This document shows positions 2,003 to 45,926 of a stretch of 45,926 nucleotides of DNA, one piece after another (position 1 is the stretch's first letter; the number at the start of each line of letters is the position of its first letter). The notes under the pieces are model-generated. The model saw nothing but the letters and a program-made list of their open reading frames with translations. It did not search any database and was not told the DNA's origin. The DNA is from a virus: the UHGV virus genome UHGV-0253013; one strand, written 5' to 3'. Both the position numbers and the translations under genes were made by a program.

Positions 2003-2290
2003 ATGAGTACGCCTGAGGGGCGCATCCAGAAATACGCAAAAGAGAGATTTGAGGTCATGGGGGGCCTTGTACGCAAATTGTCGTACGAAAATAGAGTGGG
2101 AGCCCCTGACCTGCTGGTAATTCTCCCCGGCGGCATCGTCTGGTTCGTGGAGGTTAAGAAAGACGAAAACACGAAGCCTGACCCGCACCAGTTACGTGAG
2201 CATGAGCGGATGCGTAAACGCGGTGCAAATGTTTTTGTCGTTGGGTCGTTTAAACAGGTTGACGACCTAATAGCGAACTATTATAGTTAG
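2003..2290 (+). CDS. VRR-NUC domain nuclease
   Basis: GAPDLLVILPGGIVWFVEVKKDE...HQ pattern typical of VRR-NUC (PD-(D/E)xK) nucleases; sits in the replication cluster. Confidence 0.7.
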   Translation: MSTPEGRIQKYAKERFEVMGGLVRKLSYENRVGAPDLLVILPGGIVWFVEVKKDENTKPDPHQLREHERMRKRGANVFVVGSFKQVDDLIANYYS

Positions 2291-2320: not shown

Positions 2321-2512
2321 ATGAAACATGAATATGACCGCAAACCAGCACGCGACATCGTACCTGGCGATATGATTTTCAACGTCAAGACGCGCCAGCC
2401 TGTTGCCGTTGATACGGTGTTCGTAGAGTCGAACGGTAAACTGGTTATCGAAGACGTAACAGGAAACGTTACCGCGTTCGGGCGTAAAGAGCTGGTTCTG
2501 GTGGCCAAATGA
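2321..2512 (+). CDS. hypothetical protein
   Basis: ORF with AGGAATTGAG upstream; stop overlaps the helicase start (ATGA). Confidence 0.4.
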   Translation: MKHEYDRKPARDIVPGDMIFNVKTRQPVAVDTVFVESNGKLVIEDVTGNVTAFGRKELVLVAK

Positions 2513-4974
2513 ATAAATTCACTAGAAGGCCTTATCAAAAGCTCATGACCTCGTTCATGCTGCAACACCCGCGCTGTAATATCTGGGCCAGTATGGGCAG
2601 CGGCAAGTGCCTGAAACGCGGGACTGAAGTTATTATGTTTGACGGTACGACCAAGAAAGTAGAAGACGTCATCGTCGGTGACGTGCTTATGGGGCCGGAT
2701 TCAACGCCTAGAAATGTACTGTCTCTCGGTAGAGGCCGGGAGATGATGTACGAGGTTAAACCGCGAAAAGGAGAGTCGTATACGGTCAACGAAAGCCATA
2801 TATTATCCCTGCGAACTACTACAGGGATCGCAAAAGGTTCATGGCCAGATGATACCGTTTTCGACATAAGCGTCCGCGACTGGCTTAAGTTGCCGAAATA
2901 TGTAACCGGGCCTAATGGGTATCTTAAGGGTTGGCGGGTACCTGTCGATTTTACAAGGAAAGAGCAGGACGAGGCTTTATTGCCTCCGTACCTTATGGGG
3001 TTATGGCTGGGCGACGGTACTTCGTCGTCTGGGGCCATAACATCAGGAGAGAACGAAAAGGAAATAAGGGCGTATCTTGAGTCGTACGCAGCACGTAATG
3101 GGATGCAAATACGAAAAGAAGGACTTACATGGAGTATATCTTACGGCAACACAGGTCATAAGAAGCACGGGTTTACACACGCGCTGAAATCGGCGGGTGT
3201 CCTGAACAATAAGCATATACCGCATAATTACAAATGCGGCGACCGGCGACAGCGTTTAGAATTGCTGGCGGGGCTTCTGGATAGTGATGGTTACTGCGAT
3301 TTGTCTAAAGCAGGTTTTGACTGGATTTCGGTAAGCGAGCGACTCGCTGATGATTTTTGCTATCTATGCCGTTCTCTTGGTTTCGCCGCTTACAAGAAGA
3401 AAACTCGTAAGCGTTGCGCAAACACTGATGTTTGGGGTGACTACTTTAGCGTATCAGTATCGGGCGATTTTTCTGAGGTACCTTTCGTGCGCGGACGCCA
3501 CCAGAATTTACCGAAGCGTAATATTAATAAGAACGTGCTTAACGTTGGGATAGAATCCATAACCCCGGTCGGCGTAGATGACTATTTTGGCTTCACTATC
3601 GACGGTGACAGTCGGTTTTTATTGGGGGACTTCACTGTCACGCACAATACAAGCTCAACGTTGTGGGCTCTCAACAGACTGTTCCGTAATGGGCAACTTA
3701 ATGACGACGACCGAGTGTTAATTCTGGCTCCTTTACGTGTTGCGTCCGGCACGTGGCCCGCGGAACAGGCACGTTGGAACTTCCCGTGTTTGCATGTTGT
3801 AGACGCAACTGGTTCAGAGAAGCGCCGCATCGCGGCGCTGGAGTCAGATGCCAACGTGGTGTGCACGAACTACGAAGTTATTGAGTGGCTGATTGACTAC
3901 TACGGCAAAGACGACTGGCCTTTTACGGTTATCGTTGCCGATGAAAGCACGAAGCTCAAATCATTCCGTAGCCGTTCCGGCGGCAGCAAGCGTGCAAAGG
4001 CGCTTAGCAAAGTGGCGTTCGGTAAGGTTAAGCGTTTCATCAACCTTACCGGTACGCCGTCGCCGAACGGCCTCAAAGACTTGTGGGGGCAGAACTGGTT
4101 TATCGACGGCGGAGAGCGCCTGGGGTCATCGTACACCGCATTCACAGACCGCTGGTTTAACTCGGTACAGAAAGGCAAATCAGCGATGGCACGTGAATAT
4201 CACGCACGCCCGGGCGCAGATAACGAGATTCACCAGAAGATGAAGGACATTAGTCTCACGATTGACGCCGCCGAGTGGTTTGGGTGTGAAGCGCCGATTA
4301 TCGTACCGGTCGAAATCGACCTGCCGAAGAAAGCGCGGCAGGCGTACATCGATATGGAGGAGAAGCTATTCGCGGAACTGGAGAGCGGAGAAGTTGAAGC
4401 GGCTAACGCCGCGGCGAAGACCTCAAAGTGCTTGCAGATTGCTTCCGGTGCCGTATATGTATCGGGGCCGGACGGCGAAGCAACGAAAGACTGGGAGAAA
4501 GTGCACGACACGAAACTTGATGCGCTCGAGTCGATTGTTGAGGAGTTACAGGGTGCGCCGTTACTGGTAGCCTATCAGTTCAAGCATGAACTGGAGCGCA
4601 TCCTTAAGCGATTCCCGCAAGCACAGGCATTTGCCAAAGGTGCTAAGGGTAATAAGCAGATGGAAGCGTGGAACCGTAGGGAGATACCTATGCTCCTGAT
4701 ACACCCAGCCTCCGCAGGCCACGGACTGTCGCTACAACACGGCGGACACCACATGGCCTTTATGAGTCAGGGGTGGAACCTGGAACATTATCTGCAGGTT
4801 ATCGAGCGTATAGGCCCAGTAAGGCAGATGCAATCCGGATACAAACGGTCTGTATTCATTTATCAAATAATAGCACGAGATACTCTTGATGAAGTTGTCG
4901 CCTCTCGTACAGACGAGAAAAGGTCTGTACAGGACGAACTACTTAATTATATGAAGCGCAGAGGTAAGAAATGA
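2509..4974 (+). CDS. SNF2/DEAD-like helicase, intein-containing
   Basis: Walker A MGSGK|...|TSS is split by the insert; downstream VIVADEST (DExx-like) and INLTGTPSPNGL (motif III-like). Confidence 0.8.
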   Translation: MNKFTRRPYQKLMTSFMLQHPRCNIWASMGSGKCLKRGTEVIMFDGTTKKVEDVIVGDVLMGPDSTPRNVLSLGRGREMMYEVKPRKGESYTVNESHILSLRTTTGIAKGSWPDDTVFDISVRDWLKLPKYVTGPNGYLKGWRVPVDFTRKEQDEALLPPYLMGLWLGDGTSSSGAITSGENEKEIRAYLESYAARNGMQIRKEGLTWSISYGNTGHKKHGFTHALKSAGVLNNKHIPHNYKCGDRRQRLELLAGLLDSDGYCDLSKAGFDWISVSERLADDFCYLCRSLGFAAYKKKTRKRCANTDVWGDYFSVSVSGDFSEVPFVRGRHQNLPKRNINKNVLNVGIESITPVGVDDYFGFTIDGDSRFLLGDFTVTHNTSSTLWALNRLFRNGQLNDDDRVLILAPLRVASGTWPAEQARWNFPCLHVVDATGSEKRRIAALESDANVVCTNYEVIEWLIDYYGKDDWPFTVIVADESTKLKSFRSRSGGSKRAKALSKVAFGKVKRFINLTGTPSPNGLKDLWGQNWFIDGGERLGSSYTAFTDRWFNSVQKGKSAMAREYHARPGADNEIHQKMKDISLTIDAAEWFGCEAPIIVPVEIDLPKKARQAYIDMEEKLFAELESGEVEAANAAAKTSKCLQIASGAVYVSGPDGEATKDWEKVHDTKLDALESIVEELQGAPLLVAYQFKHELERILKRFPQAQAFAKGAKGNKQMEAWNRREIPMLLIHPASAGHGLSLQHGGHHMAFMSQGWNLEHYLQVIERIGPVRQMQSGYKRSVFIYQIIARDTLDEVVASRTDEKRSVQDELLNYMKRRGKK
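2608..3648 (+). mobile_element. intein (347 aa) with LAGLIDADG homing endonuclease domain, inserted in the helicase P-loop
   Basis: Starts with Cys directly after GSGK; ends ...VTHN followed by Thr (+1 nucleophile). Block B-like NESHILSL. Two LAGLIDADG motifs: LMGLWLGDG and LAGLLDSDG. Excision restores GSGKTSS. Confidence 0.8.
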
Positions 4975-14677: not shown

Positions 14678-15094
14678 CTACTTTACAGATAAAGCTTTGC
14701 GGCTCTCAGCATGGTGTTGAGCGACGGCCCCTCCCAGCCCTTTATACTCCTTCAACAGCTTGACCAACGCTTTCTTAGTGAACTTCTCCTCGAAGGACCA
14801 CCCTACAACAACAACGGCAGCAAGTGCATCGTTAAGTTTAGCCAATTCACTGTTTAATTCCGTGTTATAGCGCGCCCAGTCTCCCTTCTCTCGGCACTCC
14901 GCGTCTAGGGGTTTCAGACGGTCAAGGATGTCGCGGTAAGCAGAGATAAAATCCTTAGCTGCTGCGATTGAGTCGTCGCAGTCTGGCCCCATCACCTGCA
15001 ACCACTCCCCGGAGTCACTGCCGTCAGGTAGCAGGATAGGCATCTTAGTTCCCGCAGCGTGGCGGGACGCGAAATAAAAATCAGAAAGTTTCAT
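14678..15094 (-). CDS. tail assembly chaperone (G-like)
   Basis: 138 aa acidic protein directly upstream of the tape measure gene; synteny-based. Confidence 0.5.
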   Translation of the reverse strand: MKLSDFYFASRHAAGTKMPILLPDGSDSGEWLQVMGPDCDDSIAAAKDFISAYRDILDRLKPLDAECREKGDWARYNTELNSELAKLNDALAAVVVVGWSFEEKFTKKALVKLLKEYKGLGGAVAQHHAESRKALSVK

Positions 15095-15202: not shown

Positions 15203-15231
15203 TTGCACACCCCAATATAATAGGGTACTAT
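15203..15231 (+). promoter_or_regulatory. sigma70-like promoter, class A (TTGCAC-N17-TACTAT) with embedded AATAGGGTACTATT inverted repeat
   Basis: TTGCAC at 15203-15208, 17-nt spacer, TACTAT at 15226-15231; about 40 nt upstream of the ATG at 15272. Near-identical copies at 25976, 36521 (-) and 37566 (-). Confidence 0.5.
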
Positions 15232-15271
15232 TCACTTACACCAACGTTATTAACTTAAATAAGGAATTAAA

Positions 15272-23505: not shown

Positions 23506-23587
23506 AGTCAGTATGTCCCCTGGACGTTTGAATCCGGGCCACCCGGATTTACATGTCAAGAATAAATTATTCCAACATGCAAGGCAA

Positions 23588-23851
23588 CTATTCCAGAATA
23601 TTCCTCACGTAATCCTGCAACATGAACACTTTCAGTCTCAGTTGCCGTACACATTCGGCATTCTGAACGTCGATAGCTAAATCCTCGTCAGCGTCACTAC
23701 TTGGCGGTGCCAGTTTGCACGGAGGCTGCATCATCGTCGTATCCGGGGATGGAATTGGCGTTTGCGACGGCGCGGGACTTGAGCAGGACGCGAGCATCGT
23801 CGAAAGTGCACACGCTGCGACCAGGCGTTTTAATGTACTTAACGACTTCAC
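23588..23851 (-). CDS. o-spanin (outer-membrane lipoprotein, Rz1-like)
   Basis: Signal peptide with lipobox LASC, Pro-rich mature region; starts inside the i-spanin gene in another frame and extends past its stop. Confidence 0.55.
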   Translation of the reverse strand: MKSLSTLKRLVAACALSTMLASCSSPAPSQTPIPSPDTTMMQPPCKLAPPSSDADEDLAIDVQNAECVRQLRLKVFMLQDYVRNILE

Positions 23852-24307: not shown

Positions 24308-24350
24308 AGCTTAGCACATTTTTAGTGAAAAGTCAACTATTCGAATAGTT
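24308..24350 (-). promoter_or_regulatory. candidate promoter (TTGACT-N17-TAAGCT, minus strand) with a perfect 16-bp palindrome over the -35
   Basis: Plus-strand AACTATTCGAATAGTT (24335-24350) is a perfect palindrome of GAATAGTT half-sites; reverse complement gives TTGACT, 17 nt, TAAGCT. Confidence 0.35.
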
Positions 24351-24398
24351 TATTCCAACATTTACAATTGAGCGGAATAACTGGAATAATCACAGACA

Positions 24399-25975: not shown

Positions 25976-26004
25976 TTGCAGACACCAACATAATAGGGTA
26001 CTAT
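25976..26004 (+). promoter_or_regulatory. sigma70-like promoter, class A (TTGCAG-N17-TACTAT)
   Basis: TTGCAG at 25976-25981, 17-nt spacer containing ATAATAGGG, TACTAT at 25999-26004; upstream of the ATG at 26032. Confidence 0.5.
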
Positions 26005-26031
26005 TCAGTTAACTTAAACAGGAGACGAAAG

Positions 26032-28874: not shown

Positions 28875-29029
28875 AGATATAGACCCTCGGGTATGGGTGT
28901 CAAAAGCCTAATAAAAATTAGGTTGCAAGTCACCAGAAACTCGCTACTGCGAGTTTTACTTGCACCGGGCTGGCGGTCAATATATCTTATCATTAAGCAG
29001 ATAAAAATGAATTGTTGGAGGGGATACGT

Positions 29030-30409
29030 ATGGGCAGAAGAATAACTGAAGAAGAAATCAAAAACCGGTTAGCTATGTTTGGGTTTAAATTGGTTGAATA
29101 TGGCGGGTCGCAAGTAGCAAAATCCGTTATAAAATGCCCCAATGGACACGAGGAATTGAAGTCGCTTAACACCTTCACGGCTAATGGTGTGCGCTGTAAA
29201 TCTTGCGCTGCTGCTGAAAGGAGTCTGGCGTACAGCACCGACGAGACCGAAGCGAGAAGGATAGTCGAGGACATGGGGTATTCGCTGATAAAATACGGCG
29301 GCAATTTGTACCGCAAAAAATCTACCGTCCAATGTGCAAACGGTCATGTGCGCGAAGTTCGCATAGGAAATATGGTTAAGGGTCATCGCTGCAAAAAGTG
29401 CGTGGCGGAAGCAATGTGTTTGGCGGAAGACGTGGTTAACACCAGACTACCAGATGGGGTCAAGATGGATTTTTACTGCGGCAACACGCGGGGGCTTAGT
29501 CTATTTTCTTGCGAAAAAGGGCACTCGTGGTCCGCATCCGTGAATAACGTAGTGTCTCAACAAACGAAATGTCCTAAATGCTCTAATAACGTAAGTGGTA
29601 TGGAAAAAGAAGTTCTGTCGTTTATCCGCGGAGTATACCCAGGTGTTGTCAATACGTCCGTACGGTCGCTTATCTCGCCGTTTGAGCTGGACATAGTATT
29701 GCCGGAGATTAAGGTGGCCATAGAATTTAACGGCATCTATTGGCATTCCGAGGCGAATGGTAAACACCGTAACTACCACATAAATAAGAGATTAGCGTGT
29801 GAGAAACTTGGGTACAGGCTGATAAGCGTACGAAGCGACCTTTGGTTAGAGAAGCGAGAGCATGTTGAGCGCATTTTGAAGAACGCGGTAGGGGTACGTA
29901 CTGTGTCTATTTTTGCCAGAAAATGTCGTGTGGTAGAGATAGCCAACAAAGACGCATTCCAGTTCTGTGAGGACAATCACATCCAGGGTGGGACAAAGGC
30001 TACAAAAGCGTATGCATTACTTCACGCTGGTGAGGTGGTTGCGGTAATGACTTTGGTACATTGGCGCCGCAAGGACTCATGGGAACTGGTGCGATATTGC
30101 ACCAGTACGTCCGTGCCCGGTGGCCTAAGTAAGCTGTGGAAACATGTGACGCAAGAAAACAACATTAAGCAAGCGTTCACTTATACCGACCGTGACCTTT
30201 TCACCGGTGCATCTTACGCAGAAGCTGGGTTTATATTTGATAGCTGCTCCGTAGGGTTTCGCGTTGTCGTAGGAACTCGTACAGAATCCCGCCAGAAATG
30301 GGGCAAAGCTCCCGAGGGTCTTACCCAAACAGAGTGGTACGAACGAGAAAAAGTGTCGCGCATATGGGATAGCGGTCAGGATAAGTGGGAATGGGTTAAA
30401 GGGGCATAA
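29030..30409 (+). CDS. putative homing endonuclease: three Zn-ribbon-like repeats plus DUF559/Vsr-like nuclease domain
   Basis: ATG at 29030 after GGAGGGG. Repeats CPNGHEELKS...CKSC, CANGHVREV...CKKC, CEKGHSWS...CPKC; then ELDIVLPEIKVAIEFNGIYWHSE; opposite strand between portal and terminase. Confidence 0.5.
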   Translation: MGRRITEEEIKNRLAMFGFKLVEYGGSQVAKSVIKCPNGHEELKSLNTFTANGVRCKSCAAAERSLAYSTDETEARRIVEDMGYSLIKYGGNLYRKKSTVQCANGHVREVRIGNMVKGHRCKKCVAEAMCLAEDVVNTRLPDGVKMDFYCGNTRGLSLFSCEKGHSWSASVNNVVSQQTKCPKCSNNVSGMEKEVLSFIRGVYPGVVNTSVRSLISPFELDIVLPEIKVAIEFNGIYWHSEANGKHRNYHINKRLACEKLGYRLISVRSDLWLEKREHVERILKNAVGVRTVSIFARKCRVVEIANKDAFQFCEDNHIQGGTKATKAYALLHAGEVVAVMTLVHWRRKDSWELVRYCTSTSVPGGLSKLWKHVTQENNIKQAFTYTDRDLFTGASYAEAGFIFDSCSVGFRVVVGTRTESRQKWGKAPEGLTQTEWYEREKVSRIWDSGQDKWEWVKGA

Positions 30410-33823: not shown

Positions 33824-33852
33824 AATATAATAGGGTCGATGGTAATAGTCAA
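33824..33852 (-). promoter_or_regulatory. sigma70-like promoter (TTGACT-N17-TATATT, minus strand)
   Basis: Minus-strand read GTTGACT, 17 nt, TATATT; about 35 nt upstream of the ATG at 33789. Confidence 0.5.
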
Positions 33853-34059
33853 CTAGTCATCGCAGAAAATAGATAAAAAAAATCCCGGCTGGGTCAGGGC
33901 CGGGATAAAACTGGAGAGCAGAGGGATGGAACAGGAGGTGATTTAAGTATCGTCGGATTGGTCTTAGGTGTCAACCTTTTCGACTCCCGCCAATCATACC
34001 CCAAATCACGCCAACTACCGCACCAGCTCCAATAGCCAGGAAAATGAAGTCAAACTCTG

Positions 34060-36359: not shown

Positions 36360-36520
36360 CAGCTTCACCCCTTTTCCCATCCACCCCGACTAGCAGCGAT
36401 TTAGTGTCGCCGTCGCACACCGAAGTGCTACCCATTATTTCGTAAGCGTCTACCAGTTCGCCTAAAGTCCAGCTACCGTACCAGCCCATCTTCTGTCTCT
36501 CCTCTCGTTTGTGTAAATGA

Positions 36521-36549
36521 ATAGTAGCCTATTCTATCTTAGTGTGCAA
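36521..36549 (-). promoter_or_regulatory. sigma70-like promoter, class A (TTGCAC-N17-TACTAT, minus strand)
   Basis: Minus-strand read CTTGCACACTAAGATAGAATAGGCTACTATTCA; the -10 overlaps an AATAGGCTACTATT inverted repeat. Confidence 0.5.
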
Positions 36550-36706
36550 GTAAATTTTATTGGTGTTTGTATTGTTGCATCTCCTGTAATAGTCGCTTCT
36601 ATTGTTGCGTTTGGTGGAAGTGTCGCTTTTTGACGACACTAATCTAAAGTTGTACGCTGCTACACAGCAGCGTAAGTCACTCAGTAAAATCTCAAACTAT
36701 TGAACA

Positions 36707-37540: not shown

Positions 37541-37565
37541 TCCTCTGTCTCATTTCGATAAGTGA

Positions 37566-37594
37566 ATAGTACCCTATTATATTGGGGTGTGCAA
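37566..37594 (-). promoter_or_regulatory. sigma70-like promoter, class A (TTGCAC-N17-TACTAT, minus strand)
   Basis: Minus-strand read CTTGCACACCCCAATATAATAGGGTACTATTCACTTA, matching the 15203 copy over about 35 nt. Confidence 0.55.
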
Positions 37595-37821
37595 GAGAAT
37601 AGTTACGTTGCCGTTGTGATTCTTCGGGGAAGGTTGTGCCTTTATTCTTATTACTTGGTAACTAAAGGGCAGGCCTTAAGCCTGCCCAATAATCGTTACA
37701 TTTTTACGGTTGCGAATCTACGGCACATTAAGAAACAGTAGATATTTCAGCGGGTTACTTCTTTAAATGAGATTTAGATACACTTATCCTTAAACCCCAA
37801 GGCAAGCATCTCAGCTGTCTG

Positions 37822-37862
37822 GGAGGGGTTGACGAATCCCTCGGGGAGGGTTCGTCAACTCC
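37822..37862. repeat. imperfect inverted repeat centred on TTGACGAA / TTCGTCAA in the divergent control region
   Basis: GGAGGGGTTGACGAATCCCTC followed directly by GGGGAGGGTTCGTCAACTCC; arms pair over about 17 bp with small bulges. Confidence 0.5.
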
Positions 37863-37952
37863 GTAATATATACAAGTCCCAAAACCATTATACAAACATG
37901 TGTCAAGAACTTTCAATAACATTTTTGTAAAGATTAAATATTACAGAGATTG

Positions 37953-37981
37953 GTTGCTTTTACATTCCCGCTATCCTATAC
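37953..37981 (+). promoter_or_regulatory. sigma70-like promoter for the rightward replication genes (TTGCTT-N17-TATACT)
   Basis: TTGCTT at 37953-37958, 17-nt spacer, TATACT at 37976-37981; about 30 nt upstream of the ATG at 38014. Confidence 0.45.
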
Positions 37982-38013
37982 TCGGTTTCGCTAAACAAAC
38001 AGGAGATATAAAA

Positions 38014-38196
38014 ATGTCGCATTATATGACGCAGAATGAAGTAGCTGAACGTATCGGGGTGACACGTCAGACAATTAATAACTGGTTGCGCAGCGGCAAA
38101 TTCCCTGACTGCTGTATTAAGGTTATGGGCCGCCGTTTACCGGGAACATTTGACCGTAATAAAGTCGAAGCATGGATTAAGGAGAACGTGAAATGA
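38014..38196 (+). CDS. small HTH DNA-binding protein (AlpA/excisionase-like fold)
   Basis: ATG at 38014 after AGGAG; MSHYMTQNEVAERIGVTRQTINNWLRSGKFP is a typical small phage HTH regulator sequence. Confidence 0.55.
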   Translation: MSHYMTQNEVAERIGVTRQTINNWLRSGKFPDCCIKVMGRRLPGTFDRNKVEAWIKENVK

Positions 38197-40909: not shown

Positions 40910-40927
40910 AAGGGGCATTAAGCCCCT
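40910..40927. terminator. bidirectional terminator between convergent genes
   Basis: AAGGGGC-ATTA-GCCCCTT hairpin between the primase/helicase stop (40900) and the leftward XRE gene stop (40918). Confidence 0.5.
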
Positions 40928-41133
40928 TCACCTAGCGCCAGCCACTTGGCGTCTACCTCCAGCACTTCCGCCAGTTTAAACAGCGTTGCCGGGCGGACGT
41001 CCTGGGTTACCCCAAGTGCCAGCTGGTTAATTGCGCCCTGGGAAACCCCGGTCAGCACCGCCAGACGGCGCTGGGAAATACCGAGTTCTTTACGGCGCTG
41101 TTCTACACGGATGCCTAGTTCAGATGGTTGCAT
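40918..41133 (-). CDS. XRE-family HTH transcriptional regulator (Cro/CI-like)
   Basis: RRKELGISQRRLAVLTGVSQGAINQLALG is a canonical XRE helix-turn-helix; the only leftward gene in the rightward replication block. Confidence 0.7.
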   Translation of the reverse strand: MQPSELGIRVEQRRKELGISQRRLAVLTGVSQGAINQLALGVTQDVRPATLFKLAEVLEVDAKWLALGEGA

Positions 41134-41197
41134 GTCAATTACTCCTTAGTCAGTTGATATGTGAATAGTACCATATTAATTATTTTAGAAAAGCCCG

Positions 41198-41226
41198 TTG
41201 ACAAGTGAATAGTTCGCTATTATAGT
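41198..41226 (+). promoter_or_regulatory. sigma70-like promoter, class B (TTGACA-N17-TATAGT) with embedded operator-like inverted repeat
   Basis: TTGACA at 41198-41203, spacer AGTGAATAGTTCGCTAT, TATAGT at 41221-41226; a related GTGAATAGTACCATATTAAT element lies at 41161-41180. Confidence 0.55.
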
Positions 41227-41256
41227 TAGCCCATACCAAACGAGAGGGTACGCGAC

Positions 41257-41757
41257 ATGGATACCAAATACATTAAAACGTCTATGTTCAGTTATGAACC
41301 AGAAACTGGAGTACTTCGATGGGCTGTAAAGAGGGGCAAGGTTAAACCAGGAGACGAGGCCGGATGTTTGGCCAAAACATGCGGGTATAGAATGGTTAGA
41401 CTAGACGGTGTGTTAACCCCGGTACACAGGATAGTATGGGATATGCTTAATCCTACGGATAAACTACAAGAAGGTGACGAAATAGACCATATAGACCACG
41501 ATAAACTTAATAACCGAGCTTCTAATCTTAGAAAAGTTTGCCACCTATCAAATATGCACAACAGGTCAAAGCACAAGAACAACACATCAGGTGTAACCGG
41601 CGTGTCTTGGGTGGGGAAGCAAAATAAGTGGTATGCGTACATATACAAAAAAGGTACAAATTACAACTTAGGATACTTTTCAAAATTTGAAGATGCTGTT
41701 TTCGCAAGAAAAGAAGCAGAAATAAAACTCAACTTCCATAAAAATCACGGAGAATGA
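41257..41757 (+). CDS. HNH homing endonuclease with AP2-like domain (paralog 3 of 3)
   Basis: EIDHIDHDKLNNRASNLRKV HNH motif; C-terminal SGVTGVSW...YFSKFEDAVFARKEAE...NFHKNHGE parallels the other two paralogs. Confidence 0.8.
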   Translation: MDTKYIKTSMFSYEPETGVLRWAVKRGKVKPGDEAGCLAKTCGYRMVRLDGVLTPVHRIVWDMLNPTDKLQEGDEIDHIDHDKLNNRASNLRKVCHLSNMHNRSKHKNNTSGVTGVSWVGKQNKWYAYIYKKGTNYNLGYFSKFEDAVFARKEAEIKLNFHKNHGE

Positions 41758-41760
41758 ACC

Positions 41761-42243
41761 ATGTTAGAACAATTTATTAAATTACTGGAACGTTTCGTAG
41801 TCGCCCATGAACTGATTGCTGCGAATAGTGCGAAACAAGTTAATGTTGCAAAAACTGCATTAGTCGCAGAGGTCGTTGAACAAACCGCAACAATCGAGAC
41901 AGCAAAAGAAAGCCCGGTTGAAGGTGAAGACATCGTCGACACTAAACCGGCAGAAGAAGAGAAGCCAAAACGTAAGCCGCGTAAAGCTAAAGTAGAGGAG
42001 TCGACGCCAGAACCAGAAGAAGAGAAAGAAGAGGTCGATTACCAGTCTCTTCGTGACCAGATTCAGGCTATCGACGATGCAATTAACGAAGGTCCGAGTG
42101 ATGCCGCGTGCGACGATTCTGATGAACTGCTGGAAGAGTTTACCGGTAAGAAAATGAAGATTGCTGCGATTAAAGACGAAGACCTGGCTGAATACCTGGA
42201 ACGTCTGACGGCAATCAAGAACAAGTATTTCGAAGAAGAATAA
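41761..42243 (+). CDS. highly acidic protein
   Basis: 160 aa with long Glu/Asp-rich stretches (EPEEEKEEVDYQ, DDSDELLEEF). Confidence 0.45.
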   Translation: MLEQFIKLLERFVVAHELIAANSAKQVNVAKTALVAEVVEQTATIETAKESPVEGEDIVDTKPAEEEKPKRKPRKAKVEESTPEPEEEKEEVDYQSLRDQIQAIDDAINEGPSDAACDDSDELLEEFTGKKMKIAAIKDEDLAEYLERLTAIKNKYFEEE

Positions 42244-42286
42244 TTATCTCGCGGCCTTCGGGCCGCTTTAACTGAGGGTCGGAATA

Positions 42287-42502
42287 ATGAGTAACGTATA
42301 CAAAGTAATAAACGAACAAATAGTTGTAGAAATAAGTGACTCATATGTGGGTTGTCAGCGATTCTTTGTTTTGAATGGTGCGTGGCGCGGGACTCTTGAC
42401 TATGCCGCTGGCGAATATTGGGCGGACATGTACCCAACCGATAAAACGGCGGTACATACAATTCGTCCCGCCGTTAAAGGTGAATTTGCGCCGTACTACT
42501 GA
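42287..42502 (+). CDS. hypothetical protein
   Basis: ORF preceded by the conserved leader ACTGAGGGTCGGAATAATGA. Confidence 0.4.
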   Translation: MSNVYKVINEQIVVEISDSYVGCQRFFVLNGAWRGTLDYAAGEYWADMYPTDKTAVHTIRPAVKGEFAPYY

Positions 42503-42513
42503 GGGTCGGAATT

Positions 42514-42717
42514 ATGACTATTTTAGCTAAGAAAAGTGGTCTTATGATTTCTGGCAGTGTTGTCGCTGAAAATGATTTGGTTTACGTATTTCAGGCGGTA
42601 GACAACAAACACCCTACGACGGTCAAGAAGGCCAGCAAAGTTGAGAAGGTTTTCGACGGCGATTTTTCTATTGACGATGTTTTCACGTGGATTAATTCTG
42701 CGAGGGTAAGGAAATGA
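42514..42717 (+). CDS. hypothetical protein
   Basis: ORF preceded by a second copy of the conserved leader (ACTGAGGGTCGGAATTATGA). Confidence 0.4.
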   Translation: MTILAKKSGLMISGSVVAENDLVYVFQAVDNKHPTTVKKASKVEKVFDGDFSIDDVFTWINSARVRK

Positions 42718-42986
42718 TTTACCAACTCTACCGCGCCGTCGACAGGCGGGACAACACAGAGGCACTATGGCTGTTGCGTGCGCCGTCCGGAGCGCACCAG
42801 ATGGAAGAGATGGCTTACTTAGGCAAAGTACCGCGGCCTAAAGATATAGGCCGTCACGTGTCACAGATTAAGCGCACGACTTTCGCCAAACCTGACTTTT
42901 ATGTCTTCGAGTCTATGTATGGGTGGGCTATGCTTTGTGATCATAAGACACGACATTTAATCGACCAGTGGGAGAACAGGGTATGA
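42714..42986 (+). CDS. hypothetical protein
   Basis: ATGA-coupled ORF upstream of the DUF2800-like gene. Confidence 0.4.
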   Translation: MIYQLYRAVDRRDNTEALWLLRAPSGAHQMEEMAYLGKVPRPKDIGRHVSQIKRTTFAKPDFYVFESMYGWAMLCDHKTRHLIDQWENRV

Positions 42987-44224
42987 TTTTAAAAGAACGC
43001 GGTGGTAATAACGATGTGCACGCCCTGCTGTCGCCGTCTGGTGCTAAAAAGTGGCTGAGTTGTGCCGCGTCACTGGCCTGTGAAAAAGGTATTCCTAACA
43101 CATCCGGTAAATCCGCCGTTACAGGAACCGCGTGCCACACTATAGCTGAGGTCCATCTTAACCAGTACATCAAAGGCACTGCGTTGCCGTTAGAGCGTGA
43201 AGTCGGCGCTTACGTGCTGGATGAGGGCAGAGGCCAGATTAAGGCACTAATCGGTCCGATGAAAGGCGCGGTACTTATTACGGCGGACATGATTGAACAG
43301 GTGCGCAAGTACACCGACTACTGCAAAGCGATTATAGATGTAGCGACTTACGCTAAGCTGGAAATGCGCGTCAATCTTACTGAGGTATTGCATCCGGGGT
43401 ATGAAGGCGTTGAGACGTTCGGGACTGCTGACCTTGTTGCCGTACAGGAACTGGCTAACACAGACGAACATATTCTCATTATCGGCGACCTGAAAACAGG
43501 ACGGCATCGTGTCGAAGCGAAAGAAAACAAGCAGCTTATGCTTTACGCTCTCGGTGTTTATCGCCGACTCAAGAGGCGTTATAACATCACCGTGGTTCGT
43601 CTGGTAATTTTCCAGCCGTGCGCTGGTGGTGCGTCGGAGTGGGACATCTCGGTTGAAGGCCTTGAACTGTTCGCTAAGTTTGCACAAAAACGAGCACTGT
43701 TAGCGCTCGATGCCTATTCCCGCGGCAAGAAGAACCTGAAAGCGTCTGACTTTAAGCCGTCGGTCGATGGTTGTCAGTGGTGTCGGTTCTCTGAACAATG
43801 CGCCGCGCGTACAAAAACCGTTAACGCTGTACTGGCGGAAGAACTGGAGGACGACTTTGCGCTGGAACTGACGCCGGAGCAACTTGTAGCTGAGTATGAG
43901 AAGTTGCCGTTGTTGCGCCAGCACATCGACAAGGTTGAGAAAGCTATGGCTGCCGCGCTGCATTCCGGTAAGAAAGTGCCGGGGTACAAACTGGTAGAAG
44001 GACGCCCAGGTAATCGTGCGTGGAAAGACGCGGAGAAAGTTGCTGGCAAGTATGGCATAGCGCTAATGAAGCAAGTGCTCATGACGCCAACCGAAGCTGT
44101 TAAAGTCATACCGGAAGATGAACTGAAAGACTTCATTACCCGTAAGCCAGGAGCGCCATGTGTCGCAACGGCAAACGACAAACGTCCTGAGTGGAATCGG
44201 GTTAGTGAAGAAGATTTAGAATAA
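42968..44224 (+). CDS. PD-(D/E)xK nuclease, DUF2800/Cas4-like
   Basis: N-terminal HALLSPSGAKKWLSC is the DUF2800 signature; C-terminal Cys cluster CQWCRFSEQC; sits upstream of the DUF2815-like and polymerase genes. Confidence 0.65.
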   Translation: MGEQGMILKERGGNNDVHALLSPSGAKKWLSCAASLACEKGIPNTSGKSAVTGTACHTIAEVHLNQYIKGTALPLEREVGAYVLDEGRGQIKALIGPMKGAVLITADMIEQVRKYTDYCKAIIDVATYAKLEMRVNLTEVLHPGYEGVETFGTADLVAVQELANTDEHILIIGDLKTGRHRVEAKENKQLMLYALGVYRRLKRRYNITVVRLVIFQPCAGGASEWDISVEGLELFAKFAQKRALLALDAYSRGKKNLKASDFKPSVDGCQWCRFSEQCAARTKTVNAVLAEELEDDFALELTPEQLVAEYEKLPLLRQHIDKVEKAMAAALHSGKKVPGYKLVEGRPGNRAWKDAEKVAGKYGIALMKQVLMTPTEAVKVIPEDELKDFITRKPGAPCVATANDKRPEWNRVSEEDLE

Positions 44225-44228
44225 AGTG

Positions 44229-44257
44229 TTGACACCTGAATAGTTAGCTATTATAGT
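44229..44257 (+). promoter_or_regulatory. sigma70-like promoter, class B (TTGACA-N17-TATAGT) with embedded operator-like inverted repeat
   Basis: TTGACA at 44229-44234, spacer CCTGAATAGTTAGCTAT, TATAGT at 44252-44257; same architecture as the 41198 copy. Confidence 0.55.
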
Positions 44258-44311
44258 TCTAATCACTGGCCTGGCAGCTTCCAGGAGTAAACTGAAAAGC
44301 GAGAAATTAAG

Positions 44312-44938
44312 ATGGGAATTAAACTGAATCTGCGTAAAGTAAACACTGCATGGGTTAACGTATTCGAACGCGAAAAAGACCGTGAAAACGATGATGGCTC
44401 CATCACTAAAGGCCAGTATAGCGCGACTATCATCCTGCCGCCTGACCACGCTCAAATCGATGCACTCTACGACACTGTTTACGCTGTAGTTGAAGAAGCG
44501 TTAGGCGCAGCTGCTGCCGAGAAATGGATGAAGTCCAACTACGGCGAAGGTAAGCACATGGATAAATGCGCGATTAAAGACATTGCTGAGCGTGATAACC
44601 CGTTTGAAGACTTCCCAGAAGGCTTCTACTTCAAAGCGAAGGCGCAGAAGCAGCCGCTGATTGTAACCTCTAAAAAAGGTGAGACTCAGGTGGAGCAGGA
44701 CTTCAACGTAGACGGCGAACAGATTGAAGGCGAACAGGTTTACAGTGGCTGTGTCGCTAACGTAAGCGTCGAAATCTGGTTCAGCCAGAAATATAAAGTT
44801 CTCGGGGTTAACCTGCTGGCGATTAAGTACGTCGGTGAAGGTAAAGCGTTCGGCGGTTCTAAAGTCGCCGCAAGCGTCGACGACCTGGAAGACGACGAAG
44901 AAGATGAAGCACCGCGCCGCGAACGTCGCCGCCGTTAA
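44312..44938 (+). CDS. DUF2815-like protein (putative ssDNA-binding protein)
   Basis: 208 aa with acidic C-terminal tail (DDLEDDEEDEAPRRERRRR); placed between the DUF2800-like nuclease and the polymerase. Confidence 0.55.
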   Translation: MGIKLNLRKVNTAWVNVFEREKDRENDDGSITKGQYSATIILPPDHAQIDALYDTVYAVVEEALGAAAAEKWMKSNYGEGKHMDKCAIKDIAERDNPFEDFPEGFYFKAKAQKQPLIVTSKKGETQVEQDFNVDGEQIEGEQVYSGCVANVSVEIWFSQKYKVLGVNLLAIKYVGEGKAFGGSKVAASVDDLEDDEEDEAPRRERRRR

Positions 44939-44997: not shown

Positions 44998-45926
44998 ATG
45001 AGTTACCTGTTCTTAGACTTTGAAACATTCTCCGAAGCCGATTTAAAGAAAGTCGGCTCCTACGCTTACGCCGAACACCCGACTACCGAAGTGCTTATCT
45101 GCACATATGCTTTTGACGACGAGCCTGTGCGGGTATGGGATTGCACCGACGGCAGCGACATGCCGGGTGATTTGCACCGCGCACTGCGCCGCCTGGTTAA
45201 GCCGAACAGTCGTATTAAGATGGTGTGGCACAACGGCTCAATGTTCGACAGGCTCATCATGAAACACTGCTGGGGCTTTGATATTCCCGTAAGCAACACC
45301 ATTGATACGATGATTTGGGCGTTTCGTCACGCGCTGCCGGGTTCACTTGATGCGCTGTGTGAAGTGCTTGGCGTGTCTGCTGACAATGCAAAAGATAAAC
45401 GCGGCAAGGCGCTGATTCAGCGTTTCTCTAAACCGACACCGAAGAATTACAAAATCCGCCGCTACACCGCAGAAACACACCCGGACGAGTGGGCGCTGTT
45501 CATCAAGTACGCCGTGAGCGACATCACTGCGATGCGTGAAGTCTTCCATAAGCTGCCGCGTTGGGGTAACTCTGAGTTCGAAGACCGTGTACTGGAACTG
45601 GACCAGTTAATCAACGACCGCGGGTTTAAGGTTGACGTTGCACTGGCGGAAGCCGCTATTGAAGCCGTGGAGAAACACAAAGCGCAGTTACAGGAGGAAG
45701 CCCAACGCAAATACGGCGGCTCGCTTACTGGTAAGGACTTTCTGCCGATTCTTCGTGAACTCGCCCCTGCACACCGCATACACAACGCACAGAAGTCGAC
45801 GCTTAACGACCTGCTGGCGGACGATGATTTACCGGACGACGCACGCACAATTATCGAAATGCGCCTGGGGGCAGCGTCCACTGCATCAACGAAATATAAC
45901 CCGCTGCTGTTAGGTCGCTCTTCGGA
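44998..45926 (+). CDS. DNA polymerase, family A, N-terminal 3'-5' exonuclease domain; 3' end lies outside the window
   Basis: ATG at 44998 after the leader ACTAAGGGTTGAAAATAATGA; LFLDFETFSEADL is an Exo I-like motif; frame still open at the last base. Confidence 0.8.
   Translation, partial: MSYLFLDFETFSEADLKKVGSYAYAEHPTTEVLICTYAFDDEPVRVWDCTDGSDMPGDLHRALRRLVKPNSRIKMVWHNGSMFDRLIMKHCWGFDIPVSNTIDTMIWAFRHALPGSLDALCEVLGVSADNAKDKRGKALIQRFSKPTPKNYKIRRYTAETHPDEWALFIKYAVSDITAMREVFHKLPRWGNSEFEDRVLELDQLINDRGFKVDVALAEAAIEAVEKHKAQLQEEAQRKYGGSLTGKDFLPILRELAPAHRIHNAQKSTLNDLLADDDLPDDARTIIEMRLGAASTASTKYNPLLLGRSS

Follow-up and report, generated by a model that had tools for sequence, protein, structure and literature searches.

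A 14-bp palindrome recurring in the core promoters of a virulent Kagunavirus: a candidate operator for a 434-Cro-like protein

Background

The spacers of two similarly built promoters, at 41198-41226 and 44229-44257 in the genome of a virulent phage, contain an inverted repeat, and the question raised by this locus is what binds the repeat and with what effect. The window, by which we mean the whole stretch of 45,926 nucleotides that was analysed (UHGV virus genome UHGV-0253013), is a complete, circularly permuted Kagunavirus genome (Guernseyvirinae) of a virulent Escherichia coli phage. Over the region compared, it shares about 95% identity with Escherichia phage JSSK01, and 447 Kagunavirus and Jerseyvirus records match it. 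The phages of these two genera are widely isolated and figure in proposals for therapy and biocontrol. Their transcription programme has hardly been studied, and the "transcriptional repressor" gene of the Guernseyvirinae is regularly flagged as a possible lysogeny marker. The answer that we favor, with little more than even confidence, is that the repeat is the operator of an autoregulated XRE protein, similar to Cro of phage 434, that would occlude RNA polymerase at a dispersed early and middle regulon.

Promoters at 41198, 44229 and 2259

Both promoters lie exactly where a sequence-only reading of the window had placed them (41198-41226, + strand, TTGACAAGTGAATAGTTCGCTATTATAGT; 44229-44257, + strand, TTGACACCTGAATAGTTAGCTATTATAGT), and the genes behind them are an HNH_3 endonuclease gene at 41257 and a DUF2815/Enc34-type single-stranded DNA-binding (SSB) gene at 44312, respectively. 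The first promoter sits in a 123-bp gap between the endonuclease gene and a divergent gene for a 71-aa XRE/HTH_3 protein (40918-41133, minus strand), and it would drive the HNH gene (41257-41757) and later genes. The second is flanked by a DUF2800 nuclease gene and the SSB gene (44312-44938), and it would drive the latter together with the DNA polymerase gene that comes next. Each is intergenic, lies 31-55 nt 5' of a start codon equipped with a ribosome-binding site and scores 11/12 in a sigma-70 scan, with a 17-bp spacer. TTGACA-N16-18-TATAGT has two matches in the window against 0.03 expected, and the joint 29-nt pattern has two against 0.00. The two regions show no relationship outside their hexamers and spacer element; since the likeness is confined to functional elements, it does not reflect a duplication.

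These promoters had been described as a pair. A third one of the same build (TTGACG-N17-TATAGT, TTGACGACCTAATAGCGAACTATTATAGT) lies at 2259-2287 (+ strand), where it would drive a 63-aa gene (2321-2512) and a helicase gene and carries the palindrome AATAGCGAACTATT at 2269-2282, so the class (class B) is a trio, itself part of a larger set that numbers about ten sites. In the Jerseyvirus PVP-SE2, the orthologues of promoters 41198 and 44229 are already annotated as phiSITE-predicted promoters and that of promoter 2259 is annotated as a promoter at 15036-15084. The -35 and -10 hexamers are kept across Kagunavirus, Jerseyvirus and Cornellvirus. To judge from these features, all three are strong, credible host sigma-70 promoters.

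Two observations concern the leaders of these promoters. Between promoter 44229 and the SSB start codon at 44312 there is a hairpin, CCTGG-cagctt-CCAGG (44270-44285), that is kept in 15 diverse relatives, down to 47% protein identity, with compensatory changes in three of its five pairs and without an Rfam match; it may be a translational autoregulation or processing site of the SSB gene. At 41198, the promoter plus its leader (41227-41260 in the window, TTAGCCCATACCAAACGAGAGGAG..., and loci L002-L038) is near-invariant and the first downstream gene differs in at least seven ways among Kagunaviruses. The cassette has the look of a junction at which genes are exchanged by recombination.

A recurrent palindrome in promoter cores

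The spacer repeat that the sequence-only reading had seen is present in both promoters, but AATAG-N4-CTATT, a palindrome of 14 bp (16 bp with its flanks), describes it better than GAATAGTT-N-GCTATT. The exact palindrome occurs seven times in the window (at 2269, 15219, 25992, 36520, 37565, 41208 and 44239), against 0.04 copies expected from first-order Markov simulations. With up to one mismatch there are 11 copies against 1.3 expected from these simulations, and a search of the window for the spacer motif returned ten sites against 0.9. An unbiased census of all 5-N4-5 palindromes in the window also ranked AATAG first, with its seven copies. Three of the one-mismatch copies (24328, 33844 and 41164) are conserved and the remaining one, which is intragenic, is probably fortuitous. 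Altogether, ten of the 11 sites lie in promoter cores, including those of a second group of promoters (class A).

In promoter 41198 the palindrome AATAGTTCGCTATT (41208-41221) extends from about -25 to -12, and is preceded at 41207 by a G whose significance is discussed below; in promoter 44229 the spacer contains AATAGTTAGCTATT (44239-44252). The span of -25 to -12 characterizes class B, and in class A the dyad covers -21 to -8 in the opposite orientation. An imperfect copy, AATAGTACCATATT, occupies 41164-41177; the 41208 site follows 44 bp downstream, and the start codon of the XRE gene is 31 nt away. This copy is invariant in the Kagunavirus loci and constitutes a putative autoregulatory site of the XRE gene.

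Four of the exact copies fall in the element that had been called class A. At all four, as in the XRE upstream region, a ribosome-binding site and a start codon are found 20-40 nt beyond the TGAATAG side, and the conserved GTGTGCAAG on the other side of class A, read on the opposite strand, gives TTGCAC at a distance of exactly 17 bp from TACTAT. The simplest and most likely view of class A is therefore that of a promoter of the form TTGCAC-N17-TACTAT that fires opposite to its class-B-like orientation. Its predicted members are located at 15203-15231 (+ strand, palindrome 15219-15232, gene start 15272), at 25976-26004 (+ strand, TTGCAG instead of TTGCAC, palindrome 25992-26005), at 36521-36549 (minus strand, palindrome core 36520-36533, gene start 36489 on the same strand) and at 37566-37594 (minus strand, palindrome 37565-37578, gene start at about 37531 on the same strand). 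Two further leftward promoters are associated with one-mismatch sites through their -35 boxes. At 33824-33857 (minus strand), the -35 box of TTGACT-N17-TATATT (33824-33852) lies within AATAGTCAACTAGT (33844-33857), a site kept in four genomes. At 24308-24350 (minus strand), a region corresponding to HP1 of phage fBC-Eco01, the -35 box of TTGACT-N17-TAAGCT (24308-24336) overlaps a one-mismatch site at 24328-24341 as well as AACTATTCGAATAGTT, the everted palindrome at 24335-24350. No dyad is present in the divergent early promoters near 37900-37980.

The idea that a GAATAG half-site links class A, class B and the perfect palindrome at 24335-24350 survives in part. A spacer element is common to both classes, and on that ground a common regulator may reasonably be supposed. 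GAATAG by itself, however, is not enriched (23 copies against 18.8 expected) and was dropped as a stand-alone half-site, the actual half-site being AATAG with its N4 gap. The link with 24335-24350 is weak: the half-sites are present, but their order is everted (CTATTC followed by GAATAG) and this 16-bp palindrome is genus-specific, being kept in Kagunavirus K1B4 and not in Jerseyvirus.

Two promoter elements of class A are accompanied by features of their own. On the + strand (36534-36622 and 37579-37687), their TATATT sides face terminator-like hairpins at 36594-36622 and 37667-37687, and the intervals contain no ORF; these sides are either silent or the source of short non-coding transcripts. 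Nearby, at 37800-37916, a strong promoter directed leftward (TTGAAA-N18-TATAAT, 37916-37887, 11/12) leads into a long perfect hairpin (GGGGTTGACGAATCCCTC...GAGGGTTCGTCAACTCC); this unit ends at the bidirectional terminator 37667-37687 and contains no convincing ORF.

Conservation and distribution of the dyad

The orthologue of promoter 41198 is covered by 39 IMG/VR loci, all of Kagunavirus, and that of promoter 44229 by about 60 more. Among the 28 and 23 unique orthologous sequences that these respectively provide, the arms of the palindrome and the -10 box are 96-100% conserved. The central N4 takes at least eight forms across the orthologues, and the 2-3 nt between the -35 box and the dyad vary both in sequence and in number, which results in spacers of 17 or 18 bp. 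The upstream DNA, and even the first downstream gene, is often unrelated among orthologous promoter loci. The register may also change: at the 15219 promoter of the window, the dyad is 3 nt farther from the -35 box than at the PVP-SE2 orthologue. The invariance of the arms, the variability of the center and the shifts in register relative to the hexamers, between promoter classes as between genera, make the dyad operator-like. By this pattern of conservation it behaves as a separate protein-binding site with an uncontacted center, and not as generic spacer or -10 sequence.

This conclusion bears on the possibility that the palindrome has no dedicated binder and is itself promoter sequence, namely two back-to-back -10-like elements (TACTAT versus TATTAT/TATAGT) that would form bidirectional or extended promoters. 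The TACTAT arm of class A is indeed a -10 box, the right arm of class B overlaps the -10 box and reads TATAAT on the opposite strand, and the sites at 15219 and 25992 lie between divergent genes. Moreover, the motif has been published as a promoter: in fBC-Eco01, a sister Kagunavirus, PHIRE listed seven copies of a "phage promoter" with the consensus tgAATAGTa-ccTATTat-T, which was ascribed to a phage-encoded RNA polymerase (PMC9825357). This is the same motif as the dyad of the window, although the published list omits the promoters at 41198 and 44229; a literature search with the motif as a text string returned unrelated primers only. The published label was rejected because these genomes have no RNA polymerase gene: no such domain was found in the large ORFs of the window and no such gene in the complete annotation of PVP-SE2. 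As for the broader proposal, the left arm faces no opposite-strand gene at 44229 and 2259 and yet is invariant beside hypervariable spacer bases, the hexamers of Cornellvirus persist without the palindrome, and one flanking base co-varies with the allele of the XRE gene (see below). A purely promoter-borne palindrome is therefore rather improbable. Explanations at the RNA level were also rejected: the window has neither an Rfam family nor a tRNA, and the dyads are situated 5' of the predicted transcription starts.

Two Kagunaviruses and two Jerseyviruses were examined, and the exact palindrome is enriched in all four; among the lineages compared, it is found only in these two genera. It is absent from the whole genome of Cornellvirus Shemara, where TTGACA-N17-TATAGT is kept at the same two positions with an asymmetric ATTAG-N4-GTAWTA there and at five other sites. 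The sequence-only reading had named loss of the palindrome in relatives that keep the hexamers as a refuting condition, and Cornellvirus is such a case, which makes the element lineage-specific and no universal part of these promoters. When equivalent perfect palindromes were sought de novo in Cornellvirus and in six lineages that are more distant, none proved enriched, and these carry looser motifs only (ATTAG-N4-GTAWTA and TTAG-N4-CTAA). In the lineage represented by loci L149 and L157, both orthologous positions carry TTAG-N4-CTAA, which amounts to a dyad-symmetric change of the arms. More generally, lineages with other XRE types carry other motifs at the same positions.

Candidate binding proteins

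The best candidate for binding the dyad is the 71-aa XRE protein encoded at 40918-41133 (minus strand; Pfam HTH_3, E = 2e-12). Among solved structures it is closest to 434 Cro and 434 repressor (E values from 6e-6 to 1.5e-5, with 8e-6 for 434 Cro and 1.5e-5 for 434 repressor), which it matches over residues 6-68, and two dyad sites lie in the region upstream of its gene, between it and promoter 41198. 434 Cro and repressor bind 14-bp operators as dimers, and the outer bases of these operators are conserved and their center variable.

The bases that flank the dyad were compared in 46 loci for which the XRE protein could be typed. In genomes with the K-type protein (xreK), the site reads TGAATAG-N4-CTATTAT, with the G flank at 115 of 150 sites (20 of 31 unique ones); the G at 41207 in the window is such a flank. 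In genomes with the J-type protein (xreJ), the G flank occurs at 0 of 40 sites (0 of 11 unique ones), a difference with a Fisher p of 2e-4 on unique 16-mers, uncorrected for phylogeny. The promoter-proximal flank is constrained, since it doubles as the -11A of the -10 hexamer. The site at 36520 is the one that is free on both sides, and there the window has the fully symmetric, perfect 16-mer GAATAGTAGCCTATTC. In three mosaic loci (L105, L110 and L125) the XRE gene is of the J type while the SSB gene and the sequence on both sides of the operator, in two different upstream contexts, are K-like, and exactly the G-to-T change is seen at their sites.

These same mosaics have an early region, XRE and HTH_17 genes included, that is 89-94% Jerseyvirus-like and an SSB/polymerase segment that is 87-93% Kagunavirus-like, which indicates exchange between the two genera.

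The main competitor of the XRE protein is a 60-aa HTH_17 protein (38014-38196, + strand), a MerR/Xis-like product of an early gene whose own promoter (37954-37982) is among those without the palindrome. In that case, the HTH_17 protein would bind the dyads and the XRE protein would control only its own promoter region. The HTH_17 gene is present in 443 records, exactly those of the palindrome-bearing Kagunavirus and Jerseyvirus and none outside; the complete genome of Cornellvirus Shemara lacks it, as do six lineages that are more distant. Between the two genera the protein retains 80-82% identity, as would suit a core site that has not changed. According to RNA sequencing (RNA-seq) of K1B4, only four genes, that of HTH_17 among them, reach their peak within the latent period. 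Nevertheless, its recognition-helix alleles (TRQTINNW, TRRTLNNW and STMTLNRW) vary among xreK genomes with identical operators, and the G/T flank tracks the XRE type and not the HTH_17 allele. Short HTH_17/Xis-like proteins usually bind direct repeats as monomers, not dyads. The protein has no significant solved homologue, and its phyletic match with the palindrome represents a single evolutionary event. The covariation of the flank, the mosaics and the variation of the HTH_17 alleles together favor the XRE protein as the binder, and the HTH_17 protein, which we rank below it, is an unlikely one. The 63-aa ORF at 2321-2512 was also considered as a binder; it shares the Kagunavirus and Jerseyvirus range, but it has no Pfam match and belongs to a PHROG family of unknown function.

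Alternatively, the dyad could be bound by a host factor, for instance a dimer of the MarR/SlyA type or a TrpR-like one, by which the phage would sense the state of its host. The geometry resembles that of the TrpR site ACTAG-N4-CTAGT and the SlyA site TTAGCAAGCTAA, and some variants come near to them, namely AATAGTCAACTAGT and the sites TTAGCAACCTAA and TTAGCGAGCTAA of L149/L157, the latter two being one base off the SlyA box. Yet Jerseyvirus and Cornellvirus both infect Salmonella and have different motifs, and within mosaics the flank tracks the allele of a phage gene. A host factor thus seems very improbable. The two L149/L157 sites occupy the positions of the dyads at 41164 and 44239 in the window.

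Presumed mode of action

From the homology and the covariation we infer that the XRE protein would bind the dyad, and from the position of the sites that binding would repress transcription. A dimer at -25 to -12, or at -21 to -8, must compete with RNA polymerase. The only known activators that act from within a spacer are of the MerR type and need spacers of 19-20 bp, and the spacers are of 17 or 18 bp in all the relatives. The following scenario can be proposed. The near-consensus promoters would fire unaided after infection; the XRE protein would accumulate and then occupy the dyads as a dimer; bound there, it would sterically exclude RNA polymerase, and about ten early and middle transcription units, that of the XRE gene included, would be damped or buffered. 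The weaker second site at 41164, before the XRE gene, would serve autoregulation.

Several observations weigh against this scenario. The XRE proteins of the K and J types share only 48% identity and differ in their recognition helices (SQGAINQ and SQSLITH, respectively), yet the 14-bp core is the same in both groups of genomes. The helix of the Cornellvirus XRE protein resembles the J type, but Cornellvirus has no palindrome. Covariation of the recognition helix with the core across genera, which was tried as an argument, is consequently not clean, a J-type helix being Cornellvirus-like and the J-type core being that of the K type. Given a core shared in spite of divergent XRE proteins, the covariation rests on a single flanking base and few independent events. 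The range of the palindrome fits the HTH_17 gene and not the more widespread XRE gene. Both arms are AT-rich and -10-like, so that part of their conservation reflects promoter function. Finally, K1B4 RNA-seq places genes behind dyad promoters (DNA polymerase, methyltransferases and Sie) in the latest-peaking class, which is not what an early burst followed by a shut-off would give.

The late class of K1B4 is one reason to consider that the bound protein activates or recruits RNA polymerase, and that the dyad marks a delayed class of genes and not a repressed one; another is that the -35 and -10 boxes of class A are weak. The sites nevertheless lie in the core promoter, between or over the hexamers, where the spacing does not suit MerR-type activation, and the class B hexamers, at 11/12, need no activator. 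The K1B4 experiment, the only one of its kind on a close relative, used a multiplicity of infection (MOI) of 100 and sampling to 120 min for a latent period of 30 min, and it provides gene-level classes, with neither 5' ends nor a per-gene table; with this design it cannot resolve the kinetics and was not usable for reading the direction of regulation. Activation from the dyad is accordingly quite improbable.

Relation to known regulatory systems

Repression by the XRE protein finds its closest parallel in the Cro and repressor proteins of phage 434 with OR1-3 and OL1-3. The small HTH_3 protein of the window shows homology to the 434 Cro fold over its whole length, and the two 434 proteins are the solved structures that it matches best. 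As in 434, the site is a dyad of 14 bp whose outer bases are conserved and whose center is free, the sites overlap -10 and -35 boxes of early promoters, and the regulator gene adjoins a divergent promoter region with more than one site. The differences are nonetheless considerable. The half-site AATAG is unrelated to the ACAA of 434, binding is here a prediction, and about ten dispersed promoters replace the two clustered tripartite operators of 434. The temperate immunity switch, with its CI protein, integrase and clustered operators, has no counterpart in the window: neither a CI partner nor an integrase nor an immunity region is present, and full annotations of relatives contain no CI-type repressor, integrase or lysogeny module. 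The authors of fBC-Eco01 likewise report no lysogeny genes, and the phage group is described as strictly lytic (PMC9825357).

The dispersed layout of the sites has its own parallels. In the P1 C1 operators, the conserved inverted repeats of phiC31 and the gp71 sites of mycobacteriophage L5, one repressor acts on many scattered short sites, most of which overlap early promoters. Those phages, however, are temperate and maintain lysogeny by these means, and the sites of P1 and L5 are asymmetric, whereas the phage of the window is virulent and its site a dyad. The C proteins of restriction-modification systems are small XRE-type dimers that bind tandem dyads (C-boxes) before their own gene and ensure autoregulation and timing. 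They act at one locus, where they first activate and then repress, unlike the sites described here, which are found in many core promoters.

A Cro-like operator switch is an ordinary kind of device, although it had not been described in this phage group and its motif had been published under another label. A bolder proposal can be made only tentatively, and we regard it as doubtful: nearly all the early and middle promoters of a virulent siphophage subfamily (about ten per genome) would be under a single autoregulated 434-Cro-like protein, and the flank of its operator would have co-evolved with the allele of the protein and been re-matched after recombination. Since each replicated genome adds ten operators and one repressor gene, such a system would be a copy-number buffer or an early-to-late timer and not an immunity switch. 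If the reading favored above, an operator bound by the XRE protein, is right, the repressor gene would obtain a concrete role in the lytic cycle and a regulon of about ten promoters with coordinates, the published attribution of the motif to a phage RNA polymerase would be corrected, and the matched repressor and operator variants (G flank with K-type XRE, T flank with J-type XRE) would potentially be reusable as orthogonal regulatory parts.

Other features of the window

A motif distinct from the dyad was found near other promoters. GGAATAG/GGAATAAT direct repeats lie just 5' of a TTGACA box at 23540-23595 (minus strand), and GGAATAACTGGAATAAT is present at 24373-24389, near the 24308-24336 promoter. 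Both sets are kept in Jerseyvirus, and the repeats at 23540-23595 are kept in Cornellvirus as well; they may be activator sites for late or lysis operons.

The circular genome is opened inside the DNA polymerase gene, the N-terminal part of which is at the right end of the window (44998-45926) and the C-terminal part at the left end (1-1273). Between the portal and terminase genes, a gene of 465 aa (29012-30409, + strand) with matches to a DUF4379 zinc finger, REase_MTES_1575 and a CapR-homology domain has no counterpart in PVP-SE2 or Shemara. Behind promoter 2259, the SNF2-type helicase gene (2509-4974, + strand) contains an intein with Hint and LAGLIDADG domains, and its PVP-SE2 orthologue is annotated likewise.

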